Positions 31,357-64,000 of a stretch of DNA of 64,000 bases are shown piece by piece. Numbering within the stretch: the first letter of the stretch is position 1; the number at the start of each line of letters is the position of its first letter. Under the pieces are notes generated by a model. That model was not told where the DNA came from. It did no database searches and saw only the letters and a program-made list of their open reading frames with translations. Position numbers and translations under genes: made by a program. Source of the DNA: a virus; IMG/VR virus record IMGVR_UViG_3300049893_002454, positions 32,001 through 96,000 of that record, one strand, 5' to 3'.

Positions 31357-31947
31357 ATGAAATATACAGAAGAAAGCATTAGTTTAGAACTAGAGAAACT
31401 AAATAAAGAAATGCATTCACTTAATAGTGAAATTGAAAAAATGCGATACACAAGTCTACCATCCGAGGTTGAGCCTGGTACTTGGTATAAAATAAAGTTA
31501 CCAGAAGGGGAGTTTCTACGAAGAGCTGGGGAACATTTGCAACAATATGCTGAGCTAAAGCGCGACAGGAGAGCCCTAGAGTATATGCTCAGAGAGTTGC
31601 GTGATGAGGAGAAGAGGCGTAAAAATATAGTCCCCAAGGAAAAGAATTCAGATGACTATAGCTTTAATCTAGATTTCGAATCACTCGCATCCCGCAGAGC
31701 TGCCCGTTTGTTAAAAATTGCCGCTTGTGCGTGTGATGAAATGGGCGCTGAAGATCACGAAGATGAAGATTATATGTCTCATCAGAACGCGACCGCTATA
31801 CTAGAGCAAGCGATTTTTATTGCAAAAACAATATCTGAACATACCGGAGAGGGCCATAAGTTGGATGACTGGTTGGAAGATAAGATTTCCAAGGTGGCCG
31901 ACGACATGGATGAAATTTTTAAGTACTTAAAGCATGGTAAAGATTAA
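31357..31947 (+). CDS. hypothetical protein (probable head-module protein)
   Basis: AAGGAG RBS; contains RRAARLLKIAA, similar to scaffold segments. Confidence 0.75.
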   Translation: MKYTEESISLELEKLNKEMHSLNSEIEKMRYTSLPSEVEPGTWYKIKLPEGEFLRRAGEHLQQYAELKRDRRALEYMLRELRDEEKRRKNIVPKEKNSDDYSFNLDFESLASRRAARLLKIAACACDEMGAEDHEDEDYMSHQNATAILEQAIFIAKTISEHTGEGHKLDDWLEDKISKVADDMDEIFKYLKHGKD

Positions 31948-32022
31948 TTGTACGAACTGATAATATTAAGTATCTATCAATAACCAACTAGATACTTTGA
32001 TCTTATTCTATTTGGAGGACGG

Positions 32023-32523
32023 ATGTCTACTGATTTTGATTGGGCTCATCTCATCAATGTTATTGAGCCGAAGCGTGACACTCAGTGCCTTGCTTGGGAA
32101 GACGTGCGAAGTAATTTCCGCAAGATAGCCTGGGACGTATACAAGCCTCTAGATGGCTCGGAACAATTATGGGAACTGCGCGATGGCGACGATGGTAGAA
32201 AGTATTTGTACGCCATGTATCAAAGTGCGCCAGAAAAGCCCGCCGAGAGCAATATAATTGAAGAGATCAGAACAACGGCCTCCGCTGACTGGACCGCTAC
32301 TTGTGATCGAGATCGTAAAAATATAACCCTAAGTTTTAAAGGGTTTCCGCTCAAGCGCTTTGCATCTACAGAGTTTAAGTTTGAACCAGATGAAGCTGAG
32401 CAATTTGCTGCTTTTTTACAAGCGAAGACCGCACAACCAGAATTTGTGCGACAAGTGCTAAAGGGACTACCGTTACATATGGCAGAGGTTGTCTCTGAGC
32501 TAAAGACACATAGCGAGGAATAA
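32023..32523 (+). CDS. hypothetical protein
   Basis: GGAGG RBS; 166 aa. Confidence 0.8.
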   Translation: MSTDFDWAHLINVIEPKRDTQCLAWEDVRSNFRKIAWDVYKPLDGSEQLWELRDGDDGRKYLYAMYQSAPEKPAESNIIEEIRTTASADWTATCDRDRKNITLSFKGFPLKRFASTEFKFEPDEAEQFAAFLQAKTAQPEFVRQVLKGLPLHMAEVVSELKTHSEE

Positions 32524-32524
32524 T

Positions 32525-34069
32525 ATGTCTCAAAAAGTAGATTTGGCACAGTTGCTCAGTCTGACAAATCAGGTTCTGACTGGGAAGGAATATTTTGTTT
32601 CGACCGTATTAGGGCGTCTAGATGATGCGGCAACTGTTATGCCACATGATGCAGCCATTCGCACGGCCCAGTTAGCACTTAAGCGCAGGCTGGAGAAAGA
32701 AGGCAGCCTAAGCACAATTACTCAAAAACAATTTCAATCATTATATGATGATGTGTGTGCTCTAGGCAATCGCACTGCCTTTCGAGAATTATTAGGAGAC
32801 TTGCTGGTCACTGCAGCTCCTGAGCCCACCGCTCACTATAACCCAGATTTCACCGCCTCTCACAGAGATTCCGATGATGTCCTCAAACTCGCTGATGATA
32901 ATTTGGTCGGAGAATTCTCTGTATTGTGGGGCAATACTAAGGTGGCCGGTGACCGAGTAGTCCAAAATGGTGCTGATAGTTTAAAGATACACTTCGCTTC
33001 TTTGGGTTTCAGTAATCCCACCGCAGAAGTAGTCGATCGTGCTGACGGATTTCTTATGTTCTCCGTTCAGGCCGACAGTCCAATAGGCAGATTTACTACT
33101 TATGTTCCAGTGGAAGTAAATAGCGGTTCGGCGCTTATGCCTAGCGTATTTGCTTCTAGTAGCGGATTTTCTGAATTAACTAAGGATAATCTTCTTACTT
33201 ATGCTCGTGACTTACATTCCGGCTCTACTCGACTAGCTTCTCCCCAAAAGTTATTAGCTGGGTTGGTAGCTGTCGCTGCCGAATCGAGGCCAGTGTTAGC
33301 AGTTAAGACCGCAAGCGGAGATGATATTGCCTTAGCCAGCCCAACACTCTATCAGACGGTCTCTGATCATGTAGTAGCTGAAGAGGAAGAGCGCTATACA
33401 GAATTCCCAGATCAATTAACTGGTATGGTAACCCCAGAGTTGCGTGATGCCATTATAGAAGCAGGTCTTACATACAGCAAGGATATTGTTATTACGGCCA
33501 AGACAATTGTTTCAGACAGTATCCGTAGTGCTGGTCTGATTATAGATCGCTTAGCTATTGACTCTGAGTTTGATGGCGGGCTGGTCGTAGCAGCTTCAAT
33601 TACCGGCCCTGGTGGCAAGAAAACCATTCAGGTTCCAATTGAAGTAGTCGGCAGTCAAGTGCTTATGCCTAGCGTATTTACTTCAGGTATAGCAGTTGAG
33701 GCCTTTGATGTTTCTTCATTAAAGAAATTTGCAGCTGCAACTGATGTAGGCGTATTCAATGCTGCGTTTTCTACAAAGTCCGGATGGTCGTATAAAGACC
33801 TATACTCCCATGTTATCAAAAGTGCTGCATATGGAAACTTCGTTGAGGCAGAAGATGCTATGTCCGTTATAGCTGAGCAATATGGCCCAGATTTTCATAG
33901 AGCAGTTTTCACAGATTTATCAGACATACTGAGCAATGCTGCCAGCTCTGGCGAGAGCACTGCAACTCCGATTGAGCAGATGATCGCCGAAGCCGGTGAG
34001 CGTGCGCGTAATATCGAAGATCGCATAAAGATGAGCAGCACGCTTATGTATCTTATTCCAGAAGATTGA
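32525..34069 (+). CDS. hypothetical virion-module protein with a duplicated internal domain
   Basis: VPVEV...LMPSVF occurs twice, 176 aa apart. Confidence 0.8.
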   Translation: MSQKVDLAQLLSLTNQVLTGKEYFVSTVLGRLDDAATVMPHDAAIRTAQLALKRRLEKEGSLSTITQKQFQSLYDDVCALGNRTAFRELLGDLLVTAAPEPTAHYNPDFTASHRDSDDVLKLADDNLVGEFSVLWGNTKVAGDRVVQNGADSLKIHFASLGFSNPTAEVVDRADGFLMFSVQADSPIGRFTTYVPVEVNSGSALMPSVFASSSGFSELTKDNLLTYARDLHSGSTRLASPQKLLAGLVAVAAESRPVLAVKTASGDDIALASPTLYQTVSDHVVAEEEERYTEFPDQLTGMVTPELRDAIIEAGLTYSKDIVITAKTIVSDSIRSAGLIIDRLAIDSEFDGGLVVAASITGPGGKKTIQVPIEVVGSQVLMPSVFTSGIAVEAFDVSSLKKFAAATDVGVFNAAFSTKSGWSYKDLYSHVIKSAAYGNFVEAEDAMSVIAEQYGPDFHRAVFTDLSDILSNAASSGESTATPIEQMIAEAGERARNIEDRIKMSSTLMYLIPED

Positions 34070-35352
34070 GGTGGTTAATGCTTGATTTTTTATCTAAGAC
34101 TGCGGGTATTTTAAATGAAATTGACAGCCCTGCAGCAAAGCAGGCTGCTGCTGCTCTTGAAAGTGTGCTTATGGCACACGCAGCTCGCCGTACTACGGTA
34201 ATGACTCATGAAGAAGTAGTTGAGTTTAACACTAAATTAAAGCAGTTCTTGGATGATACGCTTGGTAGCGGCAAGATTCCGCGTGGGTTAAAATGGCGAT
34301 TACTGCAGTTGCAGGACGGTCAGACCCAGTTAACCAAACAATTGGCTAATATGGAGAAGCGTAGGGGCAAGGGTCCACAGCCACTTATGCCAGCAGAGCC
34401 TCCTGGTAAACACACTTCAGTTGAGATGCCTGGCGAGATAATGCTGCAAGATGAAGTCGCGCCTACAGAGGCCCCAGTTGAAGCAGAGCAATCTTGGGCT
34501 GATATTGCCGAAGAAGGCCTGCGTGAAATGCAACAACGAGCTCCGACAGTTGCTCCCGCAGCAGTGCCGGAATTAGCACGTAAGCCATTAGAAGTTATGG
34601 AGAAGTCTCCACCTGTAGCCACTGAATCTCCTATGGTGACCGAAGATGCACAGAAAGATGTCCCTGCTCCAGCGTCATTTAAAATGCACAAGCAGCCGGC
34701 AGTTAAGGTTTTATCACCAGAGCAGATTAAGGATCTTGCTACCAATCCACCATCGGCTCCTAGCAAATATGCTCCTAAGGGCACCAAGGCTGAGCCGCCC
34801 AAAGCTTCAGGCACTCATGCAGAGACATGGGATGATAAACTCAAGCGCTGGGTTGGCCTTAGCAATCGAGCCGAGTTATTAACTGATATGGTTAAAATAG
34901 CTGATAAATTAGATGCTGCTGGTTATGTCGAAGCAGCTAATATTGTAGAAAAAATTATTGTAGAGGCCGCTGAACAATATCCGTCCCCTAGCGAAGCACG
35001 TAAAGATCTCTATGATTTCAGTGCGCACAATAAAGAAACTATGCACGGGGCTGTGAAATCAGAAGTGGAAGAGAACCGCAAGAATCATCATCTGCACACT
35101 CATCAGGGCACAGCTGTGTCACAAACACGGTATTCTCCTGATATGCCCGGCGTTATGATGCAGCGAGTCTCAGATGGAGTTTATAGAGATACTGTGACCG
35201 GTAAGGTCTATGATTTTCATCATGGATTTACTGATGCTAGTGGGACCAGCCGTTCAGGTGGCAGTATTAAACATCAGACTCCAAGCTTTTCTCAATATGC
35301 TCCGCCATCACGTGTTTTCGAGGGTGCTGGAACATTATCCAGAAGAAAGTAA
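34066..35352 (+). CDS. hypothetical Pro/Ala-rich virion-module protein
   Basis: Likely ATG 34078 after GAGG; contains MVKIADKLDAAGYVEAANIVE. Confidence 0.8.
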   Translation: MRWLMLDFLSKTAGILNEIDSPAAKQAAAALESVLMAHAARRTTVMTHEEVVEFNTKLKQFLDDTLGSGKIPRGLKWRLLQLQDGQTQLTKQLANMEKRRGKGPQPLMPAEPPGKHTSVEMPGEIMLQDEVAPTEAPVEAEQSWADIAEEGLREMQQRAPTVAPAAVPELARKPLEVMEKSPPVATESPMVTEDAQKDVPAPASFKMHKQPAVKVLSPEQIKDLATNPPSAPSKYAPKGTKAEPPKASGTHAETWDDKLKRWVGLSNRAELLTDMVKIADKLDAAGYVEAANIVEKIIVEAAEQYPSPSEARKDLYDFSAHNKETMHGAVKSEVEENRKNHHLHTHQGTAVSQTRYSPDMPGVMMQRVSDGVYRDTVTGKVYDFHHGFTDASGTSRSGGSIKHQTPSFSQYAPPSRVFEGAGTLSRRK

Positions 35353-35369
35353 TGCATCTGCGCATCTGT

Positions 35370-35413
35370 GAGGGGCGAGCTGTACATATAGGCAGCAGCC
35401 CCTCTATTTTTTT
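35370..35413 (+). terminator. probable rho-independent terminator
   Basis: GAGGGGC...GCCCCTC stem with inner GCTG/CAGC pairing, followed by TA and a run of Ts. Confidence 0.6.
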
Positions 35414-35434
35414 TGGAGATATTTGGAGTAGAAA

Positions 35435-36142
35435 ATGGCACCACAAAATAAAGTATTGCAGCACCCTCTTAAGGAAGAAATAATTTCTCAGTTAGTTAAT
35501 GGAACTCCTGTTCGCGATGTCGCTGACTTTCTACGCCTCAAGTATCCTGAAGAAGAGAATTCTCACCTACGGGTAAGTTTCTCTACTATTCAGAATTTTA
35601 AGAAAACCTACCTTGATATAGATGGCCAGATTGCTCGAGATGTACGAGCTGCGGCTACAGAAGCGATTTCAGCTCGTAGAGTGGACGAGGGTCGGGAAAG
35701 TGTTGCATCTACATCTGCCTATCAAAGAAAAATAAATGAAATAGTTGATGGCAAACTAGACGTACAGAAAGAGATTTTAAAAGCATTCTCTCTCCTAGAA
35801 TCACGCATTGAGCACTTTTATAACTTATTATCAAACTATGAATTTCCCAACTCCCGTGAAGAACGTGTATTTCAGGGATATATAGATCAATTAATTAAGC
35901 TGCTGGAAAGCTACAAGAAATATGTTGAAGGTTATTCTGAGTCAGTAGATCATAATGTCAATATCAATATTATGAATGATCAGATTGAATTAGTCCGTGA
36001 TGCTGTGAGGCAATCGCTGGAAGATGTCTCTCCAGATCTAGCTATACGCTTTATGGATAACTTAAATAGGAATATGAAAACATTAGAGTATAGTGCTTCA
36101 GGACATGTAGTAGGAGAGGCGGTGATTAGTGGCCGACATTGA
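35435..36142 (+). CDS. hypothetical protein, weak candidate for terminase small subunit
   Basis: N-terminal HTH-like segment followed by coiled coil, in the head cluster upstream of TerL; function is inference only. Confidence 0.4.
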   Translation: MAPQNKVLQHPLKEEIISQLVNGTPVRDVADFLRLKYPEEENSHLRVSFSTIQNFKKTYLDIDGQIARDVRAAATEAISARRVDEGRESVASTSAYQRKINEIVDGKLDVQKEILKAFSLLESRIEHFYNLLSNYEFPNSREERVFQGYIDQLIKLLESYKKYVEGYSESVDHNVNINIMNDQIELVRDAVRQSLEDVSPDLAIRFMDNLNRNMKTLEYSASGHVVGEAVISGRH

Positions 36143-37691
36143 TTATGATAACGAAATCGAATTAGCCCTGACCTATGGTCTAATTAATGACTATGCTGCA
36201 GAAAAATTAGCTAATATAGCTAAGCAAGGTATGACTGAGTCTTTGTGGCAAAGTACGCTAGAGAATTATAGAGAGGCCACAAGTGCGGGGGTAGGTAGCG
36301 ACAAAGATTTCACTATATTTTTCTATATCGATCTATTTGCTGATGACCTACTTAAGAAATTCTTCGGTGTATCATTATCGCAATTAGAAAAGGACGACTT
36401 TAAGCGATATTTATTTGAACACAGAGATGAATTAAATCTGACGAGCATAGAATCATTCAAGAATGCTGTTAATGAGTGGATTGGCAAGAATGAATCAGTA
36501 CACAAGCTAGCCCACCGTAATACAGAATCACGAATCCCTTTAGCACCATCATATGACCTAAATAAATGGGCTACTTTATTTGTGCAAATACAAAATTCAA
36601 TACGTACTGGACTAGATCAAAGCATTGCTCTAGATCGAGTATCGTCAGTATTATCAGTTCCAGAAAAATATAAATTCTTAATATGGGCAAACTATCATTT
36701 GAAAAATGATAATAACAAATACGATGTCAATGGTCAGATTCGCGCTAAAGAGCAGCAACTGCGTAGAGAGGTACCTATGAAGAATAAAATAGCATCGGAT
36801 GGACAATATTATTATATTCCGAAATTACTAGGCAGACAAGAACCTCAGCACGAGTCTCTACCAGCATTACCAGCATTCGATTATGAACACGAAGAGCAAT
36901 ATGCCATAGATTTTGAAACCGCTCGTAATAAGCTTATGAGCAGAGTATTTGCTATAGATAAATTGCTTGAAAAGTATAGAAGGGTAATCAAGCAAGAGCA
37001 AATGGATGCTGTTGAAGATGCCTTGTCTGAATTACGTAGGCGCATCAGAAAGCTGCGTCTAGCTAGTTCAGTGAAGGATTCGATTATTAAAACAGCTAAT
37101 ATACTTGAGAAATTGCAGTTTGGCGATGGTGCGGCCGAGCTATTTGCGATAGCTGCTGATGAGCCAGTACTTCCCAATATCGGCAATACCAAAATGGTTG
37201 ATCGTGAATTTAAAACTGTCCCTGCGGAACAGCGTGAGGTTGCACTGGATGATGCCATCAAACGCCTTACTGATATAAGTGCTATCCTAAAGAATCGCGA
37301 TCTAGTTCGCTCATTGGCCGAAATAGATCTGATGCTACATAAATTGCGTATGGCTAGCTTTTTTCCAGAAATACAAGAAGCACAATCTAAGCTAATCGAC
37401 GCATTCGGCTATGCTAGCAATAAAGTGGAGGACCTGTTGCCCAAGCTTCGCGGCGGACTGCATACCCAACCAGAGGTAATTTCAGAGCAGATACCCGAAG
37501 CACCACCAGCTTTACCTGCAAGCAAGCAGTTGGGAGATGAAGTACGTGAGATGTCTGCTGGTTTAGGCAGTCAACGAGCTCAGAAGCCCGAACCAAAAAA
37601 GCAACCTGAACCAGAACCGGTCAAAGAACAAGACGACGAGGGGTTTGAAGATGAGCCTATCAATTTAAAGTCAATCCCGGCATTAGAGTGA
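36129..37691 (+). CDS. hypothetical virion-module protein
   Basis: 520 aa, GTG start overlapping the previous gene; several K-x-A motifs. Confidence 0.8.
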   Translation: MADIDYDNEIELALTYGLINDYAAEKLANIAKQGMTESLWQSTLENYREATSAGVGSDKDFTIFFYIDLFADDLLKKFFGVSLSQLEKDDFKRYLFEHRDELNLTSIESFKNAVNEWIGKNESVHKLAHRNTESRIPLAPSYDLNKWATLFVQIQNSIRTGLDQSIALDRVSSVLSVPEKYKFLIWANYHLKNDNNKYDVNGQIRAKEQQLRREVPMKNKIASDGQYYYIPKLLGRQEPQHESLPALPAFDYEHEEQYAIDFETARNKLMSRVFAIDKLLEKYRRVIKQEQMDAVEDALSELRRRIRKLRLASSVKDSIIKTANILEKLQFGDGAAELFAIAADEPVLPNIGNTKMVDREFKTVPAEQREVALDDAIKRLTDISAILKNRDLVRSLAEIDLMLHKLRMASFFPEIQEAQSKLIDAFGYASNKVEDLLPKLRGGLHTQPEVISEQIPEAPPALPASKQLGDEVREMSAGLGSQRAQKPEPKKQPEPEPVKEQDDEGFEDEPINLKSIPALE

Positions 37692-37698
37692 GCACTTA

Positions 37699-38451
37699 AT
37701 GGATCTCAAAGAATTATTAAATTTAATCTCCGAAGTGGCAGACACTCATGGAATCAGAGCTCCTCACATCGTTGGAGGTATTCCCCGAGATATCTATATG
37801 GGCTTACTCGAGGACTTAAATGACATCGATCTGACTAATGGAGATAGCAGCATTTCTCGTTTGGCCGATCTGATAGGGGAGCGATTAGGAGTATCGCCTG
37901 CAACTCTTGCAGATGGACATAAAAAGATTAGATATGGTAGATTCTCTATAGATTTTTCTACAAATCAGATATACGATAATATTGACCAGTTGCTTATTGC
38001 TAGAGGTATGACTGTCGCAAACGATATGGTACGAGAAACCTTCTCGCGTGATTTTACAATAAATACCCTAATGGTGCCTTTAGATTTCTCTAAGATAGTC
38101 GACCTTACATCTATGGGAAAGTATGATATAGATCATAAAGTAATTAGGTGTCCTGTTGATCCACTTACTGCCATGACCTCGTCACCAAATCGTATAATTA
38201 GAGCATTTTATTATGCCGCTAGATATCGTATGTCAATAGATGACGACCTTAAGAAAGTTATAAAAACAAACCTTCATCTATTAGAGCAGGTAAAGGAGAA
38301 ATACTCCTCTGATAAGTTGGCGGCTGCTATAAAGCATGATGCTAATATACTCAATGATCTTATTGAGTTGGGCGTGCTACAGAAGATTAAATTAACCAAG
38401 GAGATGACTGAGCAGCTTATTCAAAAGCGCCGTTTGGTCGATATATTATGA
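37699..38451 (+). CDS. class II tRNA nucleotidyltransferase / poly(A) polymerase family protein
   Basis: IVGGIPRD, DIDL, RDFTIN, DL..G..DI, P.RIIRAFYYAAR; short (250 aa), no HD domain. Confidence 0.88.
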   Translation: MDLKELLNLISEVADTHGIRAPHIVGGIPRDIYMGLLEDLNDIDLTNGDSSISRLADLIGERLGVSPATLADGHKKIRYGRFSIDFSTNQIYDNIDQLLIARGMTVANDMVRETFSRDFTINTLMVPLDFSKIVDLTSMGKYDIDHKVIRCPVDPLTAMTSSPNRIIRAFYYAARYRMSIDDDLKKVIKTNLHLLEQVKEKYSSDKLAAAIKHDANILNDLIELGVLQKIKLTKEMTEQLIQKRRLVDIL

Positions 38452-38924
38452 GTATAATTATAGCATCTCTGGTGCACTTATCTACATTGATACGAAACAT
38501 GGGACAGGCCTTAGAAATGCCAGAAATTTATTCTATGGGCAATGAGATACTCGATCTTAGCACATTTCCAGAAAAAACCATACTAGAACATATGGCTAAT
38601 AACACTGTACGATACAAGATGGCATCCAAAGTCCCTCAACCACTTAGATCTAACTATGATTATGGAGAGCTTTGGCCAAAAGTGTTAGATGATTATCGTA
38701 GTGGCAAAATTCATACTATAGTAGACTATATACGAAAAAAGAAGAAAGCAGGAAATCGCAAAAAGAAGAAAGCAACTTACATGCCTCTACTAGACTCCTG
38801 TGGTGGTTCACAGGCTGATCCCGCCTATTGGATAGAATTACTACATAGTAAGCCATCACCTACAATAGTTGATTTCATAAGTTATGTGAAGGGAAGTGTG
38901 CGTGATAGCGGAGATGATGTATGA
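38448..38924 (+). CDS. hypothetical protein
   Basis: Coupled ORF; internal TIVDYI/TIVDFI repeat and a Lys-rich run. Confidence 0.7.
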   Translation: MSIIIASLVHLSTLIRNMGQALEMPEIYSMGNEILDLSTFPEKTILEHMANNTVRYKMASKVPQPLRSNYDYGELWPKVLDDYRSGKIHTIVDYIRKKKKAGNRKKKKATYMPLLDSCGGSQADPAYWIELLHSKPSPTIVDFISYVKGSVRDSGDDV

Positions 38925-39448
38925 CATTTCGTAAAATAGCAATTATTCGCCAGGATAATCATCTATCGTGTCCGTTCGGATTGCCTATAAGTGAGGCCTG
39001 TAAGTATGCCGGCGAAAGCATCCAATATATGACTCCTCTTGATGAGGTTGAGAAAGATGATCGTGAAAGATTTGCTAATGCTAATAAAAAGGTATACGTT
39101 CATCGTAATACTGGCGAACGCTGTCCGTACGCTGACAAGATCGCTGAGGGAGCGCCTGTTGTGCATTGTGATTTCGAAGAAGGTGGAGAAGGTTTAAGTG
39201 ACTCGCCAATGCGTCCGAGTCCATACTATCCACGCGTCTTTAATGGATTGGCGAATAATGCTGGTGGCGGGATAGCCGGACTAGTAGCACATCCAATACA
39301 CTCATACTGGGATAATATGGAGGCTCAGCAACTGTTTGCTAGTATGCTAACTATGTTTGCTCGTGAGTCTATGGACGATGTAAAAATAACTAAGGTAGCA
39401 GCTGACTTATTTGAAGAGCTTTTAGAAAAAGGGCGCGGAGGACAATAG
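38921..39448 (+). CDS. hypothetical Cys-containing protein
   Basis: CPFGLP..AC...CPYA...HCD; GGAG RBS. Confidence 0.75.
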   Translation: MTFRKIAIIRQDNHLSCPFGLPISEACKYAGESIQYMTPLDEVEKDDRERFANANKKVYVHRNTGERCPYADKIAEGAPVVHCDFEEGGEGLSDSPMRPSPYYPRVFNGLANNAGGGIAGLVAHPIHSYWDNMEAQQLFASMLTMFARESMDDVKITKVAADLFEELLEKGRGGQ

Positions 39449-39449
39449 T

Positions 39450-53514: not shown

Positions 53515-56500
53515 TGATGGCTATTAAAAAGATTGCGTTTAGTGATCAACTACATATATCAAATATAGTTTCTTCAGATGTTGTAGAGGCAGAAGCCGAT
53601 ATTGTAAACCGATTTAAGGAAATTGTTGCGTCCTTGCGAGATGAGCAAGAGCGTATCAAGGTCGGTACCAAGATTGCACCTAAAGTAGAAGACTTTATCT
53701 ACTGTCATGCTATACAGATGCATGCTGCTGAAGCAAATCTTGTTGGTGAGGACAGCGGTGAGTTTAGGAAGAATTCCCGTGGTGAGCCAGTACGAGGACA
53801 TTTTGAATCAGTAAAGGATGGGCGTGGTTCAGATTCGGTAAAGTGGGTTAGTCCGGATGGAATCCAGCTCTATAAGAATGCTAATGGCGATATTTTCCCA
53901 GAAGAAGATCTTATTAAATCGCATAAAGAATGGGTAGGTAAGCCTCTATGCAAAGATCATATAAGCAGCAGCGTAGATGGAATTCGCGGTATTATAGTTG
54001 ATACTTTTTATGATAACCGCTTCAAACGTGTCCATGCATTATTTGCTTTAGATAAGAAGAACTATCCTGAACTTGCTCGTAAAGTTGAAGCCAATTATGC
54101 AGTTAATGTCTCGATGGGCACAGCAGTAGGCAGATCTATTTGTACCGAATGTGCAAATGTAGCGACCACAGAGTCTGAATATTGTCATCATGTCAAATCA
54201 AAATCTAATTATGGTGAAATAAATAAGGATCTCAAGCCCATAGAGCTTAGCTTAGTGGTTGTGGGTGCTGACCCGCGTGCGAAAGTGCGTACTGTACTAG
54301 CTAGCTTTAATAATTATTTTATGCAAAAGGCGGCGGCTCTTGCTGATTCTTTAGAAGAAAGCGTAGAACCGACATCAATATCAAAAAATCTTAGTGTATC
54401 CGAAGTTATAGATTTACTTGGAGCACTGAACCAAGAAAGTGAAAAATATGCCGAGGTCATGCGTCATATTTCCACTATGAAAAATCATGAGCTGCGGGAG
54501 CTCGTGCTTAAATTGAAGTCAATGAAAGATCCTACATTAACAACTGTCAAAGATACTATTGGAGAGTTGTTAGCTGAACGATACATGGCTTCTCCCCCTC
54601 CCGCGCTTGATATTAATAATGCAGGACGCCCAACAGGTACGGCCACTCAGCCTGATTTAGGATCTGCAGCAGCAACCGGACATGACTTAGCCGGGACAAG
54701 CTTAAATACTGAGATAGGTGAGGATCCTATTTCTATGGTAGATAAGGTCGTAGGAGTTTCACGAACTCTTCCAGATCCTAATAGTGGTATAGCAACGGCA
54801 TCGGCTATTTTATCAAATTTTACTGATAGTTCTGACACCGATGTCAATAACAATTCTTTGCACAATAGATTTGCAATGTTGCAGAAGAAGGAGATTCCAA
54901 TGAATTTTGCAGAGTTACGTAAGCGTGCAGAAGCGCGCAAACAAGCGTATCACCAGGGCACAGAAGACCCAGCGAAGGCACTTCCGTACGATAAAATGGG
55001 TGACGCAGATAAGATCCGAGACACACAGGATAAACAGATGGTTGGTGATGAGCTTGATACCTCATCCGACATTCCCGCCGAAGATGCTAAGAAGAAGGAT
55101 ATTCTTCAGCGCGCTTCACTTGAAGAGCGTCGAGCTAAGCGAGCTAAGCTCCTTGAGGCACTTACCAAGCAGGCCGATTCAGCTAAGCCTGGCAATGTAG
55201 AGGAGAAGACTGACTCTCTCGGTCGTAAGGTTATGGTCGCCACTAAACCAGATGGCTCAAAAGAGGTATTGAAGGCTGATGATGAAGCCGGCACTGTTGA
55301 GAAGAAGGCTTTCTGGCAAGGAACAGAAGAGCCTACCCCTGGCAAGACCAGATATCCTCTGATGGGTGAATCACATGATAGCATGCGTGCCAAAGACAAG
55401 CAAATGAATGGCGTTGTCGAGACTGGTGCAGATGGCCTTTTCCCTGGAGATGAGCAGCTGAAGAAATCACTGCAACGCTCAGCGTCCATCAAGGCACGTC
55501 TTACAAAGAGCGCTACGCCAGGAAAGAGCACGTGGAAATTTTTTGCAGGTAATGATGAGATTCTTACTGTAAAGGCTTCTTCGGCATATGAAGTTGGCTT
55601 AGATGAGCCCGTACAAAATACAGCCCATCTCTCGCAAGACGGCAATGACCTTGTAGCTGATGACTTTTTCAAAACTGATGTTTATGCAAAGGAAGTTATG
55701 AAGCTCATCCGTTCTGCTGGTCTTGAGAAAGCAGCAGAGACTTTAGGTGGTGAGTTACCTCCTCCGCCAGCTGCCCCGCAAGCAGCGCCAGCACCAGCAG
55801 TGCAGGAATCGCCTGCTGATGCTGCTGGGGAGCAGGAGAAAGATGCTAATGATAAGATCGTAGAGGCACTCGCCTCGATCGAATCCGCTGTTGAAGAAAT
55901 TCGCAATGCAGCTAATATTGAGGATCTGAAGCAGGTAGATGTTTCATCTGAAGGCGCTGCGGTTACAGCATCATTCCGTACTCAGCTATTTAAAGTACAG
56001 GCGGAGCTAGCATCGGCAGCTGACGAACTAGCTACTTTATCAGAATCTGCTGTATCAAGCGCAATCGTTGACGAGGCTGTGTCTGACGCATTTACAGTTG
56101 CTACTGCAGCCGCCGATTTGCTAGATAAGTTTGCTGCAAAGAAAAAGAAGAAAAAAGATGATGTCAAGAAGATGAAGAAGGTAAAGAAGCTTTTTGATAA
56201 TAAGAAGCTTAAGAAGAAGGATGAAGATGAGGATGAAGATGAGGAATTGGAGAAGAGGGCAAGCGCTACACTTGCTGAGCTTCTGGCTGCCAGAGCAGCT
56301 CGTCGCGAGGCATTAGTAGCTAGAGCCGCTGATGACGGCAGTGAGTGGGAAGAGGTTACACGTCCAGAAATCCCATCATTACTAATGCAGCCTGATACTG
56401 AAGTTGATACCATTCCTGAACAAACAGAGGTTGATACTACTGCATTAGACGATGGTCTCGATGCTGCCGAAGAGTTAAGTGAAGCCCTGGAGGCATGGGA

Positions 56501-57350
56501 CGCTGAAGACGCTGCATTATCCGCTAAGGATAAGGGAGATGTTGAAGGTCCGCTTAGCAAAGAAGAGGAAGATGAAGTTGCTGAGATAGCCGACGAAGAG
56601 GTTGATGAGCACGAAAAGGAGATGCATGCTGATGATGGCCTCTTAGATCGCAAGGCCTGGAGAGCGTCTCTTCTAAAGAAGATTGCTGGCGAATGGCAGT
56701 CTACGTATTCAGAAGCTCGCAAAGGTGCCGGTCCAGAAGTTAGCGTTGATGCTAATGTATCAAATAAGCTTAACAAGGTCGAGACTCTGGCCGAGGTTAA
56801 GGATGCTATGGAAGATGTAGCTCGTTCTGAGCCGCGTAATGTACGCATGGCTGCTGAGACCCTTGATCGAATGATTCGTGCCGGGGCCGTTAAAGCAGCT
56901 CAACTCAATGAACTTGTTGCTAAGGGGGCTGTAGATGCTGAAGCCGCCAAATACTGGAAGGAGTATTTTGGTCAGACTGATGGTGGTAGCGAATTCGCTG
57001 CTGGCTTAACACAGGAATTCAAGCAGGCTAAGGCCAGCCTTGACGTTAAGGCATCAGTGGAAGAGCAAGAGGCTAAACTTATGCGCGCTTACAATCTTGC
57101 TCTTGAGGCTCAGGAACGCGGCCTTATCCCAAGGTCACGCACTGAATTACATCGCTTTGCTTCTAATATGGTTAAGTTGCCAACTGAGCAATTTGAAGCA
57201 ATGAAGAATATGATTGGCCAGGCACGCAAGGTAGATGAGCACGTTAAGACTGCCGCTCCGGTAGTTGGACTTAACTACGATCGTGCGCCAGCAGTAGCTC
57301 AACAGCCAGATGATATTTCAGTAGAGGGCTTGACTAAGCTCTTCTTCTGA
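53514..57350 (+). CDS. prohead (capsid maturation) protease fused to a long scaffold-like region
   Basis: N-terminal NANGDIFP, GKPLCKDH, GIIVD, VSMGT, C..C...C.H Zn insert, ELSLVVVGADPRA are typical of phage head-maturation serine proteases; C-terminal 800 aa are acidic, Ala-rich and helical. Confidence 0.8.
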   Translation: MMAIKKIAFSDQLHISNIVSSDVVEAEADIVNRFKEIVASLRDEQERIKVGTKIAPKVEDFIYCHAIQMHAAEANLVGEDSGEFRKNSRGEPVRGHFESVKDGRGSDSVKWVSPDGIQLYKNANGDIFPEEDLIKSHKEWVGKPLCKDHISSSVDGIRGIIVDTFYDNRFKRVHALFALDKKNYPELARKVEANYAVNVSMGTAVGRSICTECANVATTESEYCHHVKSKSNYGEINKDLKPIELSLVVVGADPRAKVRTVLASFNNYFMQKAAALADSLEESVEPTSISKNLSVSEVIDLLGALNQESEKYAEVMRHISTMKNHELRELVLKLKSMKDPTLTTVKDTIGELLAERYMASPPPALDINNAGRPTGTATQPDLGSAAATGHDLAGTSLNTEIGEDPISMVDKVVGVSRTLPDPNSGIATASAILSNFTDSSDTDVNNNSLHNRFAMLQKKEIPMNFAELRKRAEARKQAYHQGTEDPAKALPYDKMGDADKIRDTQDKQMVGDELDTSSDIPAEDAKKKDILQRASLEERRAKRAKLLEALTKQADSAKPGNVEEKTDSLGRKVMVATKPDGSKEVLKADDEAGTVEKKAFWQGTEEPTPGKTRYPLMGESHDSMRAKDKQMNGVVETGADGLFPGDEQLKKSLQRSASIKARLTKSATPGKSTWKFFAGNDEILTVKASSAYEVGLDEPVQNTAHLSQDGNDLVADDFFKTDVYAKEVMKLIRSAGLEKAAETLGGELPPPPAAPQAAPAPAVQESPADAAGEQEKDANDKIVEALASIESAVEEIRNAANIEDLKQVDVSSEGAAVTASFRTQLFKVQAELASAADELATLSESAVSSAIVDEAVSDAFTVATAAADLLDKFAAKKKKKKDDVKKMKKVKKLFDNKKLKKKDEDEDEDEELEKRASATLAELLAARAARREALVARAADDGSEWEEVTRPEIPSLLMQPDTEVDTIPEQTEVDTTALDDGLDAAEELSEALEAWDAEDAALSAKDKGDVEGPLSKEEEDEVAEIADEEVDEHEKEMHADDGLLDRKAWRASLLKKIAGEWQSTYSEARKGAGPEVSVDANVSNKLNKVETLAEVKDAMEDVARSEPRNVRMAAETLDRMIRAGAVKAAQLNELVAKGAVDAEAAKYWKEYFGQTDGGSEFAAGLTQEFKQAKASLDVKASVEEQEAKLMRAYNLALEAQERGLIPRSRTELHRFASNMVKLPTEQFEAMKNMIGQARKVDEHVKTAAPVVGLNYDRAPAVAQQPDDISVEGLTKLFF

Positions 57351-58836: not shown

Positions 58837-59673
58837 ATGCAGCGTATTAAATATAATGAAAGCGAGATTCTTGAGGCCTTCTATGTTAAGGCTGAAGCTG
58901 ATGGCTTACTTGATAGACCATCAGAAAATCTTTATCCAGATTTCGATATTAGCAGCCCTGTTAAGAATGAATTTGTTGATATAGTTGCCGTCGCTTCGCA
59001 TGATAATACATTATATGGTCTTCCAGGAGAAAGTGGGGCAGAGATGGTTGGCAAAGCCCATCCAGGTGGTGGAACTGCGATTAAACTTGATAACAATGCT
59101 CCTAAAGATAAGGATCTAGCTAATGTTGAAACTATCATCGAACGTCAAAAGGCGATGCACGATGTAGCTAAGAGTAAGCCGACTGGAAAGCTTGTACAGG
59201 CTATGACTAAATTAATAGCTTTGGCAAATCTTCTAGATGAGCAGGGGGAACATGTTGCTGCAGCTGAGTTGGATGCTGAGCTTGCAAAGATCGCTGCAGA
59301 TTTCCCACAAGCCACTCAGATGCCAGTCAGCTCAGATACTCAGATGAGTGCCGATAGAGCGGCCAGAATTAAGGCCAACAATGGGCGTGTGATCTCCATG
59401 TTAAACCAACTACGTGGTCTTAAAGGGTTGCCTCCGCTAGCAGCATCTGTACAGGCTGGCGTAATTACCAAAGAGGTCAGTGATGAATTGGCTAATTCCA
59501 TTCCTAATGGTTATTCTACTTGGCGAGAACTATTTTCTAAATTAGATAAGTTAATTTCAGACGCTAAGGTTGTGAGGGCACCATCAGCTGGATTTGCTTC
59601 AATTCCAACCCCGCAAGTAGCATATCAATCTCCTGCTGCACCTCAAAAAGGTCCGCCAGCACAATTGCCGTAA
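58837..59673 (+). CDS. hypothetical virion-module protein with AHPGGG and A-x-x-LD-x-x-G modules
   Basis: AGGAG RBS; AHPGGGT...VET...DVA; LIALANLLDEQG. Confidence 0.8.
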   Translation: MQRIKYNESEILEAFYVKAEADGLLDRPSENLYPDFDISSPVKNEFVDIVAVASHDNTLYGLPGESGAEMVGKAHPGGGTAIKLDNNAPKDKDLANVETIIERQKAMHDVAKSKPTGKLVQAMTKLIALANLLDEQGEHVAAAELDAELAKIAADFPQATQMPVSSDTQMSADRAARIKANNGRVISMLNQLRGLKGLPPLAASVQAGVITKEVSDELANSIPNGYSTWRELFSKLDKLISDAKVVRAPSAGFASIPTPQVAYQSPAAPQKGPPAQLP

Positions 59674-59685: not shown

Positions 59686-60642
59686 ATGACTTACTTACCA
59701 ATGCTAGCAGATGTCAACAGATCCGCGCATCCTGGCGGAGGCACTCAGATTACTGATGCTTCTAGGGAGGGTTTAGTGGAAGATTTATTTGAGGCGCATT
59801 TGCGTCACTTGGATGTAGCCGCAAAATCAGCAGTCGTTGGCCGTCTTGTAACTGCAGCCAATAATTTAGATGCAATGGGATTTACCACTGCAGTGAATCG
59901 TATTGATTTACTAATTTCTGCCGCTGATCAAGAAGCAGCTCATTCTCCTGATATTGCTGAAGCCACACGTCTGATTCAAATGGCAAAGGCTATTTTAGCA
60001 GAAGTAGATACTGCTAGTATCAGAGATGTGCAAGATAGGTACATCTATGATTCACTACACAGTGTAGTGACTCAGGTTGAAGCGTTAATCTCCTCTAATA
60101 ATATTCTTTCAGCAGAGGCAAAGATAAATGAACTTGATCGACAATTGCACTCCTTTAGCATCACAGATGTAGCAGAGGCGCTGGGTGGTGGCGGGACATT
60201 TATTGTAAGCAAGAAGTCAGAAGCGCAGCGGTTCATTTATGCTATAACTGCATTAAATAAATTGCTTGGCCAAATAGTGCAGTATGGGACTCGTGGCGCA
60301 GATGTGCCGAGCACACCTGTTCGCCGAAGAGAAGAAAATCCAGGGAGTAAGGTATTTCAAGAATACGCTTCCATCTTAAAGAACTTACATAACAGGTATC
60401 ATGCTGTTGATTCGTGGACTGAACATGTTGAAGCAAATGATCCTAAGAGATTTATAGCTGTTGATGATGCTGTAGCAAAAATACCAAATCTTACGCACCT
60501 TAGTGACCTAGATTTCTATATATCTAATTTAGATAAAGATAAATCATTATCCGATCAGGTATTGATGGGTCGTATACAGCAGCTAAAGACGTCATTTGCA
60601 ACAATAGTTGTCGCTCTAGAATCTATAATGGGAGCTTATTAG
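59686..60642 (+). CDS. hypothetical virion-module protein with AHPGGG and A-x-x-LD-x-x-G modules
   Basis: AHPGGGT...VED...DVA; LVTAANNLDAMG. Confidence 0.8.
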   Translation: MTYLPMLADVNRSAHPGGGTQITDASREGLVEDLFEAHLRHLDVAAKSAVVGRLVTAANNLDAMGFTTAVNRIDLLISAADQEAAHSPDIAEATRLIQMAKAILAEVDTASIRDVQDRYIYDSLHSVVTQVEALISSNNILSAEAKINELDRQLHSFSITDVAEALGGGGTFIVSKKSEAQRFIYAITALNKLLGQIVQYGTRGADVPSTPVRRREENPGSKVFQEYASILKNLHNRYHAVDSWTEHVEANDPKRFIAVDDAVAKIPNLTHLSDLDFYISNLDKDKSLSDQVLMGRIQQLKTSFATIVVALESIMGAY

Positions 60643-61564: not shown

Positions 61565-62961
61565 TGACAGTAAAGATCTCCAATGCATCATTAGGGTCAC
61601 TACCGGAGCCAATTAAAGATTTATTATGGGATGATGAGAAGGGCTTTTTCGAAAACAGCCTTCGTTGGGGAGGGCGGGGACTGATGTTCGTCAGCACCCC
61701 CTTAGCAATTATCAATGTTGCAGCGGGAGCGCTTGGCATTAGCCTACAAGATATAGGGCGCACCATTGATGCCGTGGTTACAAACTCACCATCAGGAAAT
61801 CCAACTCAGATTGCAGAAATAGTATTCAATGACCTAGCTTCAAAATTCAGTAAGAAGGCCGGAGCTGAATCTATCAATCTAGTAATCCAGGCGGCAGATC
61901 CAGCTGAAACTAAGTCAAGAGTCCCCATCTCATTTGAAGCCGAACAGCCTAACGGTACAAAGAAACCTGTGCCAAAGACCATCTCATTTGAAGCAGAGCA
62001 GCCAGTTGCTAAAAGAAAGCCCGCTCCTAAGCCAGTATTATTTCCGACTGATTCAACTGATACTGTACATAACCAACCATCTCCTGATAATAAGAATTCC
62101 CCGTCACCAAAAGAGTCTAATCGCCAGCTGGCGCTTGAACAGGAGAAGATGCGGCTGCGAGATGAGGCAGATCAGCGCAAGCACCAACGTAGATTGCAGT
62201 ATGTTGATAAGACATTTGAACAACAGAAATTACTGCGAGAACTCGATCAAGATGCCGTGCGCGAGGCAAATAAGGGAAAGGCTGAATTGGCTGCCCATCA
62301 TGCCAAGGTTGAAGAGGCTAAGTTTTCACGCGATCGCGCAGCGATGGAGCATCAGATCCGTACAAAATTCGAAATCGAGAACAAATATTTAAGGGACCAA
62401 AAATTATTTGATCTACATCGGCAACTTATTCTTGGTCAAATTACGCCAGAGCAGCATAAAGTACTATCTGCTGCCCTTACAAATACCCCTATATCAGATC
62501 GCGATCTTAAGCAGGCGCGCAAATCTCTAACACGAGCCGAACGTGAACAACTTCAGAATCGACTAAAGATTCAGACTGAAGAAATGAAGCATGCCGCAAA
62601 GAATAAAGAGCTTCTGCAGAGACAGGAATTAAAGCATGCAAGATTAATGCATGGTGCCCGTCACGGTAATAGTGGATTACTTTCATTATTCTCAGGTAAA
62701 GTTGGAAAGGCAGGTATGATTGCCGCATTAGCCGCGATAATATTTGCTGGCCTCAAGGTAATGAATAGTTCTGGCGAAACAAATGTGCCACGTACGCGTA
62801 TGGAGATCGAAGAGAGCCCCATCTCTGAAGCTGATGATACAATTCAAGATGCTGCTACAGATACGGATATGCATAGTCCAAGCGAGAGCTCTTCTAATAA
62901 GAATATACGTAATATAAGCACACATGTAAATAGCGAGCTTAAAGATATATTGGGTGATTAA
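61561..62961 (+). CDS. hypothetical membrane-associated coiled-coil protein
   Basis: Hydrophobic segments near both ends (LAIINVAAGALGI; MIAALAAIIFAGL); ISFEAEQP repeated twice. Confidence 0.75.
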   Translation: MMTVKISNASLGSLPEPIKDLLWDDEKGFFENSLRWGGRGLMFVSTPLAIINVAAGALGISLQDIGRTIDAVVTNSPSGNPTQIAEIVFNDLASKFSKKAGAESINLVIQAADPAETKSRVPISFEAEQPNGTKKPVPKTISFEAEQPVAKRKPAPKPVLFPTDSTDTVHNQPSPDNKNSPSPKESNRQLALEQEKMRLRDEADQRKHQRRLQYVDKTFEQQKLLRELDQDAVREANKGKAELAAHHAKVEEAKFSRDRAAMEHQIRTKFEIENKYLRDQKLFDLHRQLILGQITPEQHKVLSAALTNTPISDRDLKQARKSLTRAEREQLQNRLKIQTEEMKHAAKNKELLQRQELKHARLMHGARHGNSGLLSLFSGKVGKAGMIAALAAIIFAGLKVMNSSGETNVPRTRMEIEESPISEADDTIQDAATDTDMHSPSESSSNKNIRNISTHVNSELKDILGD

Positions 62962-62962
62962 T

Positions 62963-64000
62963 ATGAATATGAAAATTGATGAAGTCCTACATGCTTATGC
63001 ACAAATTCTTAGTGACTTACCTGAACAATCTACACCAGAGCCGCTATGGCATGCCACAGTAGATTTTCCAGATACTATCCCGGATCTAGATGTAGCCACT
63101 GTCTCATTGGAAACAAATGCATTTGTCTCTACAGCTGCTGATAAACAAGAAGTAGAGCTACTTAAAGAAAAGCTGCATCCAGTTAAGATAGAGGATGTTA
63201 TTGAGCTTGCCCATCCAGAACCAGTATATATTGCTGATGCCATGGGAGATGGCGGTCTGGTTGAAAATCAAAATGAGTTACATAAGAAGATCGTTGAAAT
63301 GATCAACAAGTATCCATCGGGGACAGCGGTGCATAAGTATGCTGCTCTAGTCGAAGATCTTTTATCTGTAGCCAGCCATCTCGATGCAGATGGTCATAGC
63401 TCGGCTGCTAATGAATTGGATTCATTGGCTAGCGATATAGCTTCAGTTATAAAAAAAAAGAATAGTGAGTTAACGAAATCAGCATTTCTTTTCGCTATCC
63501 CTGCTGTTGTGAAGGGAGTGGCAGCAATCCTCTCTGCCACTGGTGCTGCATGGTATGCTTATAAAGGAAAGCAAGATAACCTAGCTGCAGACTTAAAAAA
63601 GCTTGGAGATAATGTAGATTCATGGAAAGATGATAGCACATTCGCCGCATTTAAGACACGCATCTATAAATTACGGGATGCAATAACAAGTATGCAGGGC
63701 GCAACTTCAAAATGGATTTCAGACTCCAATGCTTATGCAAGTCATAAATCGCCACTAGCATTAAAGGATCTACACGATTCTACTGAGGAACTCAAAAATA
63801 CGTTTGATGCATATAAGCCGATTAGAGATGAGGTTATTGAAAGTAAGCTCTCCGGTGGCTGGTTCCCTTTATTTAAATTATATGAGTCAAATGTTATGAG
63901 CGGATATAAGGATCTAATGAACTATGCTGCATCGCAAGAGGCGGGTGCAACTAGAGCAAAGCAGGATCAGGATCCATTTGAATCAAAGGAAATGTTAGAC
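62963..64000 (+). CDS. hypothetical virion-module protein, 3'-truncated by the window edge
   Basis: Open frame MNMKIDEVLHAY... to the window end (translated by eye); contains AHP...GLVEN, LLSVASHLDADG and a hydrophobic helix. Confidence 0.75.
   Translation, partial: MNMKIDEVLHAYAQILSDLPEQSTPEPLWHATVDFPDTIPDLDVATVSLETNAFVSTAADKQEVELLKEKLHPVKIEDVIELAHPEPVYIADAMGDGGLVENQNELHKKIVEMINKYPSGTAVHKYAALVEDLLSVASHLDADGHSSAANELDSLASDIASVIKKKNSELTKSAFLFAIPAVVKGVAAILSATGAAWYAYKGKQDNLAADLKKLGDNVDSWKDDSTFAAFKTRIYKLRDAITSMQGATSKWISDSNAYASHKSPLALKDLHDSTEELKNTFDAYKPIRDEVIESKLSGGWFPLFKLYESNVMSGYKDLMNYAASQEAGATRAKQDQDPFESKEMLD

Follow-up and report, generated by a model that had tools for sequence, protein, structure and literature searches.

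The window analysed here is a 64,000-base stretch of viral DNA (IMG/VR record IMGVR_UViG_3300049893_002454, bases 32001-96000 of one viral contig, 125,545 bp long), and the subject of this report is a short peptide motif that recurs in the products of its phage head module, among them a protein in which a predicted prohead protease is joined to a long scaffold-like region. The long open reading frames (ORFs) of the window lie on the plus strand throughout, with replication-type proteins filling its first half and the head module beginning at about position 31357; the protease-scaffold gene sits within this module, between the gene for the portal and that for the major capsid protein (MCP) (Table 1). 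The motif consists of a hydrophobic residue (h), any residue (x), Lys or Arg, any residue and Ala, followed by a small or polar residue. It is strongly over-represented in the head proteins of this phage and of its relatives, and in the reading favored here it would be the signal at which the phage's own prohead protease cuts. Two close relatives from IMG/VR were available, G001 (142 kb, estimated completeness 38%) and G002, and a profile search with the resulting 3-sequence alignment recovered only these two already known relative loci. A further locus, L003, was dropped as a relative, as it gave a weak local match and did not share the gene order. Among cultured phages, Bacillus phage G (Donellivirus gee) is the nearest relative, with 53% identity for MCP gp27 and 32% for protease gp19. 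Homologs of the MCP were found on contigs of up to ~450 kb, which makes it probable that the contig is one piece of the genome of a very large phage.

Table 1. Genes and candidate motif sites in and next to the window. Positions are those of the window; aa, amino acids; ↓, predicted cut. ORFs are named by their start position.
Feature	Position	Strand	Remark
Block of 11 ORFs upstream of the terminase gene	31357..41010	+	Mostly without known function
L-S-K-T-A↓G near the N-terminus, 34066 ORF	34090..34107	+	Best profile score of the genome, 13.4
F-R-K-I-A↓I, aa 3-8, 38921 ORF	38927..38944	+	N-terminal site
L-V-K-E-A↓G, aa 212-217, 39450 ORF	40083..40100	+	Conserved in the family
Large terminase (TerL)	41019-42881	+	Pfam/PHROG matches
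Portal	42802-44775	+	PHROG matches begin at aa 95-168
Portal N-extension, L-Q-K-N-A↓I (aa 84-89) and I-R-K-N-A↓S (aa 126-131)	43051..43194	+	Conserved in homologs
Topoisomerase IB (TopoIB) and M23 peptidase fusion	45074-46396	+	Domain matches
1615-aa protein	46619-51466	+	Sole PHROG match is a weak tape-measure match
L-K-R-E-A↓A, aa 135-140, 1615-aa ORF	47021..47038	+	Profile score 12.0
Protease-scaffold ORF, 1278 aa	53514..57350	+	PHROG head maturation protease match at aa 136-231
N-terminal site I-K-K-I-A↓F, aa 4-9	53523..53540	+	Identical in both close relatives
Predicted protease domain, aa 57-264	53682..54305	+	Herpesvirus assemblin / T4 gp21 fold
Release-like site M-Q-K-A-A↓A, aa 270-275	54321..54338	+	Kept in 3/3 close genomes, variable linker after it
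Internal scaffold sites LTKQA↓D (aa 554), LQRSA↓S (657), LIRSA↓G (735)	55161..57164	+	Kept in both close relatives
Internal scaffold sites LDKFA↓A (aa 874), LKKIA↓G (1058), LHRFA↓S (1216)	55161..57164	+	Kept in both close relatives
Internal scaffold site LEKRA↓S (aa 916)	within 55161..57164	+	Partly kept in close relatives
Maturation-like site H-V-K-T-A↓A, aa 1243-1248	57240..57257	+	31 residues before the C-end
L-A-K-I-A↓A, aa 149-154, 58837 ORF	59281..59298	+	Profile score 10.9
V-N-R-S-A↓H, aa 10-15, 59686 ORF	59713..59730	+	Variable N-terminus meets conserved HPGGGT
MCP	from 65350 (window-equivalent)		Just outside the window; interrupted by a LAGLIDADG insertion

Motif counts were compared between a head set of 29 ORFs (10,752 aa) and a replication set of 32 ORFs (10,231 aa), with expected values taken from whole-protein, 30-aa-block and 15-aa-block shuffles (1000 for the bare [KR]-x-A pattern and 500 for the extended form). 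A preceding sequence-only reading had listed [KR]-x-A peptides across the head module, each of which is present in the ORF named for it. As a bare pattern, [KR]-x-A is at chance in the head ORFs (148 versus 131.2±9.9 expected, z 1.7), and 26/29 of them hold at least one copy versus 25.7 expected. What survives of that proposal is the extended form [LIVMF]-x-[KR]-x-A-[ASGD], which occurs 34 times in the head ORFs versus 9.9-10.2 expected (z 7.2-7.7), a count reached in 0/500 shuffles and an excess that persists in all three kinds of shuffle. The comparison with the replication genes, which the earlier reading had put forward, also shows the extended motif to be head-specific, the replication module being near expectation (9 versus 7.1-7.7). 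At least one extended site is found in 16/29 head ORFs (7.3 expected). An origin of the signal in one ORF was rejected, as 25 sites versus 8.2-8.7 remain when the 1278-aa protease-scaffold ORF is removed. Asp was added to the residue after the predicted cut (P1', with P5 to P1 denoting the residues of the motif before it) post hoc, after the hits had been viewed; the pre-stated [ASG] form gives 45 versus 16.8 in the head ORFs (z 6.4). No excess in the head ORFs was found for the reversed motif (9 versus ~10), an acidic residue in place of Lys or Arg at P3 (42 versus ~39), Ser or Gly in place of Ala (17 versus 27 and 17 versus 20), two register-shifted variants (32 versus 34 and 40 versus 34), or the core motif h-x-[KR]-x-A followed by any other P1' residue (25 versus 24). 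Among the well-populated a-x-b-x-c patterns of the head ORFs, LxKxA ranks at the top (21 versus 6.9).

Over the whole contig, h-x-[KR]-x-A-[ASGD] is found 5 times versus 5.9 expected in the upstream third, 9 versus 7.6 in the replication part of the window, 35 versus 10.7 in the head module as tallied for the whole contig, and 8 versus 3.8 (z 2.2) in the downstream structural part, where the core motif gives 17 versus 11.5 (z 1.7). The strongest block within the head module is made up of the 11 ORFs upstream of the terminase gene (15 versus 2.7, z 7.4); the 53514 ORF gives 9 versus 1.7, positions 41000-53500 give 7 versus 4.0 and positions 57400-67400 give 4 versus 2.5. A profile built from the relatives only, applied to this genome with a score threshold of at least 10, identifies 19 sites in 11,663 aa of head sequence, 5 in 20,621 aa of non-head sequence and 1 in 8,454 aa of the downstream part, so that the density of profile hits is ~7-fold higher in the head module than in the rest of the genome (Fisher p = 1.3e-6).

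The same signal is present in 79 further viral loci that carry the protease domain with 47-61% identity, taken with up to 10 kb on each flank. In their 1007 non-protease plus-strand ORFs the extended motif occurs 600 times versus 230 expected, with control patterns at 0.8-1.26x, and the 111 minus-strand ORFs show no excess (11 versus 13). Weighting by family (219 families, own genome excluded) gives 406 versus 187 for h-x-[KR]-x-A, about 2.1x, with controls at 1.0-1.2x; the core motif is up in 161 families and down in 52, and the family-weighted [ASGD] form gives 156 versus 53. In an unbiased gapped-tripeptide scan with one random member per family, LxKxA was the top pattern both in residues 2-46 (41 versus 7.1, then FxKxA and IxKxA) and in the remainder of the proteins (104 versus 36.6), with ~25,000-33,000 tests in each set. 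The sites are concentrated toward the N-terminus: the family-weighted numbers per length decile are 85, 59, 46 and 32, then 25-36, with controls flat at ~20-25, and the first 35 residues hold ~111 family-weighted sites versus ~15-19 for control patterns. In 102/220 families, half or more of the members have a site among their first 45 residues, and the tags can be minimal, as in MIKNA↓G, where the initiator Met serves as the hydrophobic P5 residue, and MLKKLA↓I. The preferred residues are M, L, F and I at P5, Lys at P3 (2.8x), Ala at P1 (2.3x) and Q, S, A and other polar residues at P1', and Pro is avoided at P4 (0.14x) and P2 (0.33x). The basic position of the original [KR] pattern is thus borne out for Lys (LxKxA, 3.5x) and only weakly for Arg (LxRxA, 1.3x, the same as LxExA), and replacement of Ala gives 1.2x for LxKxS, 1.5x for LxKxG and 1.2x for LxKxV. 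Refined in this way, the motif reads [L/M/F/I]-x-K(R)-x-A, with a small or polar residue at P1' and without Pro at P4 and P2.

Conservation of the sites, a check that the sequence-only reading had put forward, is observed between this phage and G001 and G002, where 30/53 site-pairs keep the full pattern and the substitution rates of the individual proteins predict 20.2 (z 3.0). Among seven control patterns, five gave z values from -0.9 to +1.2 and the other two +1.8 and +2.3. Some sites are part of a longer recurrent module, h-h-K-L-A-[ND]-x-L-D-x-x-G-h-x-x-E-A, often with a second K-x-A at its end, which is common to many otherwise unrelated head-module proteins. It is found in the 34066 ORF (aa 275-290, positions 34888-34935), the 58837 ORF (~aa 120-140), the 59686 ORF (~aa 50-70) and at many N-termini in loci L015-L093 of the relatives, where it accounts for 57/1611 core sites and is seen as enriched A..LD and LD..G patterns. 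This module may be a binding helix-hairpin for the scaffold. As the cause of the signal it was rejected, masking it lowering the enrichment just from 2.17x to 2.06x (other value after masking, 2.83x).

In phage G, the head region contains 23 sites versus 11.4 expected and the replication/large-protein region 24 versus 20.9, with 6 profile hits in 6,553 aa (0.92 per 1000 aa) and 2 in 15,721 aa (0.13 per 1000 aa), respectively. N-terminal tags are present in gp13 (MKRLISKTA↓A), gp38 (MKRLIKKA↓S) and gp20 (MSKKISRLKKTA↓L). Candidate sites are also seen in the portal gp14 (MAKQA↓A) and in gp19 (LVKTA↓A).

The protein with the most sites is the product of the 53514 ORF, with 17 h-x-[KR]-x-A sites versus 5.1 expected. 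Its true start is probably the ATG at 53517, because the relatives begin MAIKKIA. At E<=1e-30 the family numbers at least 198 representatives, with lengths mostly of 1100-1500 aa, and phage G gp19 is 32% identical over aa 52-264. An AlphaFold2 (AF2) model of aa 1-300 has a mean predicted local distance difference test (pLDDT) value of 82.5, with values >90 across most of aa 60-263. Comparison of the protease model with known structures resulted in VIA Z values of 11.1 for the varicella-zoster virus (VZV) protease (115 aligned residues, root mean square deviation 2.5), 10.3 for T4 gp21 (133 aligned, 3.1) and 10.2 for the pseudorabies virus (PRV) enzyme, with unrelated MCE-domain entries at Z<=6.5; the Foldseek probability was 0.99 with an E value of only 1.4e-3, and no sequence similarity of the protease to gp21 was found with Pfam. 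Together with the PHROG match, the predicted fold agrees with the earlier assignment of the 53514 product as a prohead protease, of the assemblin/gp21 type according to the model. His-149 and Ser-200, 51 residues apart, are both invariant across 30-37 homologs and are a candidate catalytic pair. The protease domain also contains a C-T-E-C ... C-H-H sequence (aa 210-227, positions 54141-54194), of which Cys-210, Cys-213 and Cys-224 are invariant across 30-37 homologs and which looks like a small zinc-binding insertion; we know of no description of such an insertion for T4 gp21 or the herpesvirus enzymes. Beyond aa 264 follows a long, charged, repeat-containing region that is kept across the ~1100-1500-aa family and whose position and composition suggest a scaffold role. 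Within it, ~aa 472-660 (positions 54927-55500) form a tandem duplication of two units that start with [KR]-x-A-[YFW]-x-Q-G-T-E-[ED]-P, hold D-K-Q-M-x-G and end with L-Q-R-[AS]; the units are flanked by copies of the motif, and the pattern is kept in the family consensus.

The positions of the sites in this protein are conserved to different degrees. At the N-terminus, the family consensus is M-x-I-x-K-x-A, with Lys-6 invariant in 30 sequences of 30-73% identity, and the site falls in aa 1-13 of the AF2 model, which are disordered. The last strand of the protease ends at aa 263, after which the pLDDT drops to ~60, and the predicted cut of the release-like site is located 11 residues further on; several wider homologs have Ser in place of Ala here. 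At the maturation-like site near the C-end, the 3 close genomes share an unchanged KTAAPV(V/A)G, and [KR]-x-[AS] followed by P-x-[VIL]-G is found in 74/134 full-length homologs, 32-54 residues (median 39) ahead of the C-end, with Lys at P3 in 71/74, Ala at P1 in 65/74 and Ser at P1' in 47/74. The internal scaffold sites are fixed at P5, P3 and P1 and vary at P4, P2 and P1', as in LQR[SMA]A[SSG]. A complex prediction of protease aa 52-270 with MCP residues 1-60 (score 0.10, mark 0.32) speaks neither for nor against an interaction.

Sites in the other head proteins are found at N-termini, at the ends of N-terminal extensions and in apparent linkers. The propeptide of the 34066 product is likely 9 residues long (MLDFLSKTA↓G from the likely true start), because a relative starts MLDFLSKTA↓S. 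In the 38921 family, [FLM]-[RK]-K-[IL]-A is kept in G001 and in 5/5 alignable N-termini among 8 more distant members. The 39450 family keeps [LF]-x-K-E-A-[GS]-S-A in 9/9 members (45-81% identical), with Lys-214, Glu-215 and Ala-216 invariant. Its main site and a second one at aa 154 are located in segments with pLDDT<50 (aa 198-224 and 148-159) between better-modeled parts, consistent with linker positions, in a model whose weakness (mean pLDDT 57, predicted template modeling score 0.31, 9 sequences) limits it to a consistency check. Portal homologs carry L-I-K-T-A↓[QAS] in 36/43 cases at a median position of 83. In the 59686 family the relatives have MNQLA↓HPGGG and LNREA↓HPGGG, with an upstream part that differs in length and sequence and with Gln replacing Lys/Arg in one of three, and relatives of the 58837 product have IAKLA↓A and ISKLA↓E. 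The MCP has LAKYA↓S with the predicted cut after residue 28, and 118/120 homologs have a site there; of the first 50 positions, only five are invariant in 35 sequences, Lys-26 and Ala-28 among them. Phage G gp27 aligns from residue 48 of this MCP (~residue 5 of gp27) and is without the N-terminal extension. The LKREA↓A site of the 1615-aa protein is kept in G001 and lost in G002; it is located just after an N-terminal HEVAH (aa 103, within the first 130 residues), a motif that could mark a zinc metallopeptidase. The 11-ORF block upstream of the terminase gene gave no Pfam or PHROG match except PolyA_pol / tRNA nucleotidyltransferase at 37699-38451, its motif sites are mostly kept in the G001 orthologs, and it is a candidate set of packaged or processed head proteins.

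Adjoining the portal gene, the TopoIB-M23 ORF combines a eukaryotic-type topoisomerase IB core (aa 58-281, E 2e-29) with an M23 peptidase (aa 324-421, E 1e-25), and the fusion may be a virion-carried enzyme. The idea that such fused enzymes are split at motif sites is not borne out here: the Pro/Ser/Lys-rich linker (aa 262-305) was scanned and contains no motif, and the YKKAAL sequence of this protein lies within the topoisomerase match and has no hydrophobic P5. The MCP gene is split at contig positions 97350-99355 (window-equivalent 65350-67355; locus L009, 3350-5355) into a 169-aa N-terminal and a 115-aa C-terminal ORF around a 270-aa LAGLIDADG homing-endonuclease ORF, an insertion that looks like an intron or similar element. 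The MCP of G002 is uninterrupted, and GIY-YIG-type and HNH-type homing endonucleases are encoded directly downstream of the split gene. TerL of G001 (loci L004, L006 and L007) matches in two pieces (query aa 1-200 and 194-620) with ~1 kb between them, in one open frame of 989 aa versus 620 aa in the window phage, which looks like an intein-type insertion. In the replication half of the window, ORFs 25529-25972 and 25986-26585 open with near-identical stretches of ~40 residues (MTFEIMKGW...SVSEIDRVISR...) and form a tandem paralogue pair.

The herpesvirus cleavage consensus is (V/L/I)-x-A↓S. According to PMC4498786, the protease of pseudorabies virus pUL26 is released after Ala (YLQA-T), and a second cut after Ala, at VQA-S, removes the C-terminal 37 residues of the scaffold, with which it binds the MCP. 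The phage protein resembles pUL26 in its predicted fold, in the fusion of an N-terminal protease to a long scaffold-like C-terminal part, in candidate sites at three corresponding kinds of place, among them the stretch directly behind the protease fold and one some tens of residues short of the C-end, and in a predicted Ala at P1, with Ser often at P1' in the phage family. It differs in belonging to a bacteriophage of prokaryotes, in the combination of Lys at P3 with a hydrophobic P5 where herpesviruses have a hydrophobic P3, in the extra CxxC...CHH insertion, and in the far larger number of putative substrates. The prohead proteases of T4, phiKZ and SPN3US cut after Glu, at L/I-x-E, S/A-x-E and A-x-E sequences, of which L/I-x-E is that of T4 and S/A-x-E that of phiKZ and SPN3US (PMC9026906, PMC10052503). 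T4 gp21, which shares the fold, has its own motif near the N-terminus (LIE-9), and the internal proteins of T4 have N-terminal targeting tags of 10 residues, at the end of which lies the protease motif (both from PMC9026906). Much of the arrangement seen here has a counterpart in these phages, in so far as the same two sources describe it: one short motif is reused over shell, portal, scaffold and internal proteins, N-terminal propeptides dominate, scaffold or core proteins are cut repeatedly, the protease has its own N-terminal motif and diverse internal proteins bear short N-terminal tags (PMC9026906, PMC10052503). In contrast, the present phage has a predicted P1 Ala and P3 Lys instead of P1 Glu, and a single 1278-aa ORF encodes its protease together with the scaffold. 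Phage G shares the motif excess and the N-terminal tags of the head region; unlike the present phage, it has a stand-alone 300-aa protease (gp19) that is not fused to a long scaffold, and its gp27 is without the 40-odd-residue N-terminal extension bearing the MCP site. In the portions of the full-text literature available, supplementary proteomics tables aside, no account was found of a prohead cleavage motif of the Lys-x-Ala type, nor of processed head proteins in phage G or in mycobacteriophage Myrna (including PMC12484599, PMC7150772 and PMC5646251).

The presence of the motif at the protease N-terminus, the end of the protease fold, near the C-end of the scaffold, in the portal N-extension and at the MCP N-terminus, positions of a kind that prohead proteases are known to cut, provides indirect support for cleavage. 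We therefore infer, with somewhat better than even confidence, that the prohead protease encoded by the phage itself recognizes the motif and would cut it after Ala, and that on accessory proteins the motif doubles as a loading tag. According to this proposal, head proteins would carry the tag as a short N-terminal peptide (even M-h-K-x-A), at the end of a 20-40-residue N-terminal extension or in a linker, and would enter the procapsid together with the scaffold. The protease would then release itself at the site just past its fold, cut the scaffold at many internal sites, take off the last ~31 scaffold residues, and trim the portal N-extension, the first 28 residues of the MCP and, in accessory or cargo proteins, the N-termini or linkers, possibly including packaged products of the 31357-41010 block.

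Several observations weigh against this proposal. Roughly 10 of the 34 extended hits, about one third, are accounted for by chance, as are nearly all of the bare [KR]-x-A hits. The loci of the relatives extend only ±10 kb around the protease gene, the sole non-head control within their contigs is the few minus-strand ORFs, and their families are not fully independent, through the shared recurrent module. In G001 and G002, sites with a P1' residue other than A, S, G or D are equally kept (29/43 versus 20.1 expected, z 3.1), although these sites show no numerical enrichment; the P1' rule is therefore soft, and conservation is perhaps partly structural. The release-like site is semi-conserved, with [LIVMFY]-x-[KR]-x-A present up to 45 aa past the domain end in 45/106 wider homologs, and the maturation-like site of the window phage has His, not a hydrophobic residue, at P5. 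Some copies are unlikely to be cut: the motif at aa 123 of the protease lies inside the predicted fold, a high-scoring site at aa 59 of the MCP is in a folded/conserved region, and ISRLA at aa 52-56 of the nucleotidyltransferase ORF is inside a folded domain and is not kept in G001. The generic pattern h-x-[KR]-x-h is raised ~1.4x in both modules (137 versus 97 in head and 131 versus 99 in replication ORFs), and helix periodicity therefore adds some background. In the head ORFs of 31357-64000, [LI]-x-E of the T4 type is raised as well (157 versus 122.5, z 3.8), with no rise in the replication ORFs. A T4-like Glu motif as the true signal was set aside, as [LI]-x-E reaches just 1.15x in the relatives, like [LI]-x-D and [LI]-x-K, and has no N-terminal bias; [SAG]-x-E (158 versus 170.8 in the head module, 0.95x in relatives) and [LIV]-x-A-[ST] (28 versus 26.5 in the head module) are not enriched.

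The main rival, to our minds possible though not very probable, is that the motif is an uncleaved capsid-targeting or scaffold-binding tag, a ligand for the scaffold, the portal or the protease. Strong N-terminal bias and sharing among unrelated families are as expected of such a tag, conservation independent of the P1' residue fits it, and the longer module present at some sites (57/1611) suggests a binding helix. The T4 capsid targeting sequence is likewise a 10-residue N-terminal tag, although it ends in the protease motif and is cut (PMC9026906), so that targeting and cleavage are compatible. The rival fits poorly to the internal and scaffold sites, as repeated sites in the scaffold and sites after the fold and at the C-end make little sense for targeting, whereas cleavage is known at the latter two in herpesviruses; and the five residues of MIKNA↓G, initiator Met included, would make a very short binding epitope.

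The other explanations are weaker. The motif could be a structural by-product of amphipathic helices or coiled coils, arising from helix periodicity and capping, as the excess of h-x-[KR]-x-h in both modules and of [LI]-x-E in the head module would suggest; Leu at -6 and -2 and Ala at +2 from the Lys have i, i+4 spacing, and many sites are predicted helical (site 274 of the 53514 product and site 216 of the 39450 product). A helix or composition artefact as the full cause was rejected by the block shuffles, which hold local composition, and by the reversed, acidic-P3, register-shifted and Ser/Gly controls. The preferences for Lys over Arg and for Ala over Ser, Gly or Val are not helix rules, N-terminal bias is not expected from helix content, LxKxA ranks at the top of all patterns tested, and the downstream structural region is weak in profile hits as well as in core and extended motifs. 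A purely structural origin is thus unlikely, and helix structure probably contributes background. Some Firmicute phages have the N-termini of their capsid and scaffold proteins trimmed after Phe-Ala by the host protease Prp. That the motif is cut by such a host protease or by the HEVAH-containing 1615-aa protein, with the assemblin-like domain having another specificity such as Glu, in line with the mildly raised [LI]-x-E, is in our estimate quite unlikely: the motif tracks the protease-scaffold family over 79 contigs and is densest in that very protein, at herpesvirus-like autoprocessing positions, the 1615-aa protein is absent from the 45 largest clusters of the relatives' loci, and [LI]-x-E acts as a generic pattern there. 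Chance, given that Lys and Ala are abundant and that the examples might have been cherry-picked, does hold for the bare pattern, in both the number of copies and the number of ORFs containing one. For the extended motif it is extremely unlikely and was refuted by the shuffles (z ~7), the out-of-sample profile and the replication in 79 relatives and phage G.

Proteolytic head maturation in phages is well studied only for Glu-cutting enzymes (T4, phiKZ and SPN3US), and Ala at P1 would set the present protease apart from these. The novelty proposed from the sequences would be a clade-wide prohead-protease maturation with a different specificity, herpesvirus-like at P1. Extending this, we put forward as a tentative minority view that a clade of big, mostly uncultured phages (contigs of up to ~450 kb), with phage G at its margin, keeps a herpesvirus-like assemblin-scaffold maturation with cuts after Ala at release-like and maturation-like sites, in which M/L-x-K-x-A is a portable loading and processing tag, and in which the P1 Ala common to these phages and herpesviruses is ancestral to the protease lineage and not convergent; dozens of unrelated proteins would then enter the capsid and mature there, candidates being the nucleotidyltransferase, the HExxH protein and the 31357-41010 block. 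If cleavage after Ala holds true, widespread very large and mostly uncultured phages follow a different rule, hydrophobic-x-Lys-x-Ala and then the cut, and P1 Ala together with the protease-scaffold layout would tighten the evolutionary link to herpesvirus maturation. The motif would also predict mature ends, propeptides and capsid-loaded proteins of unknown function in hundreds of metagenomic genomes, and the short tag may serve for loading foreign proteins into such capsids.

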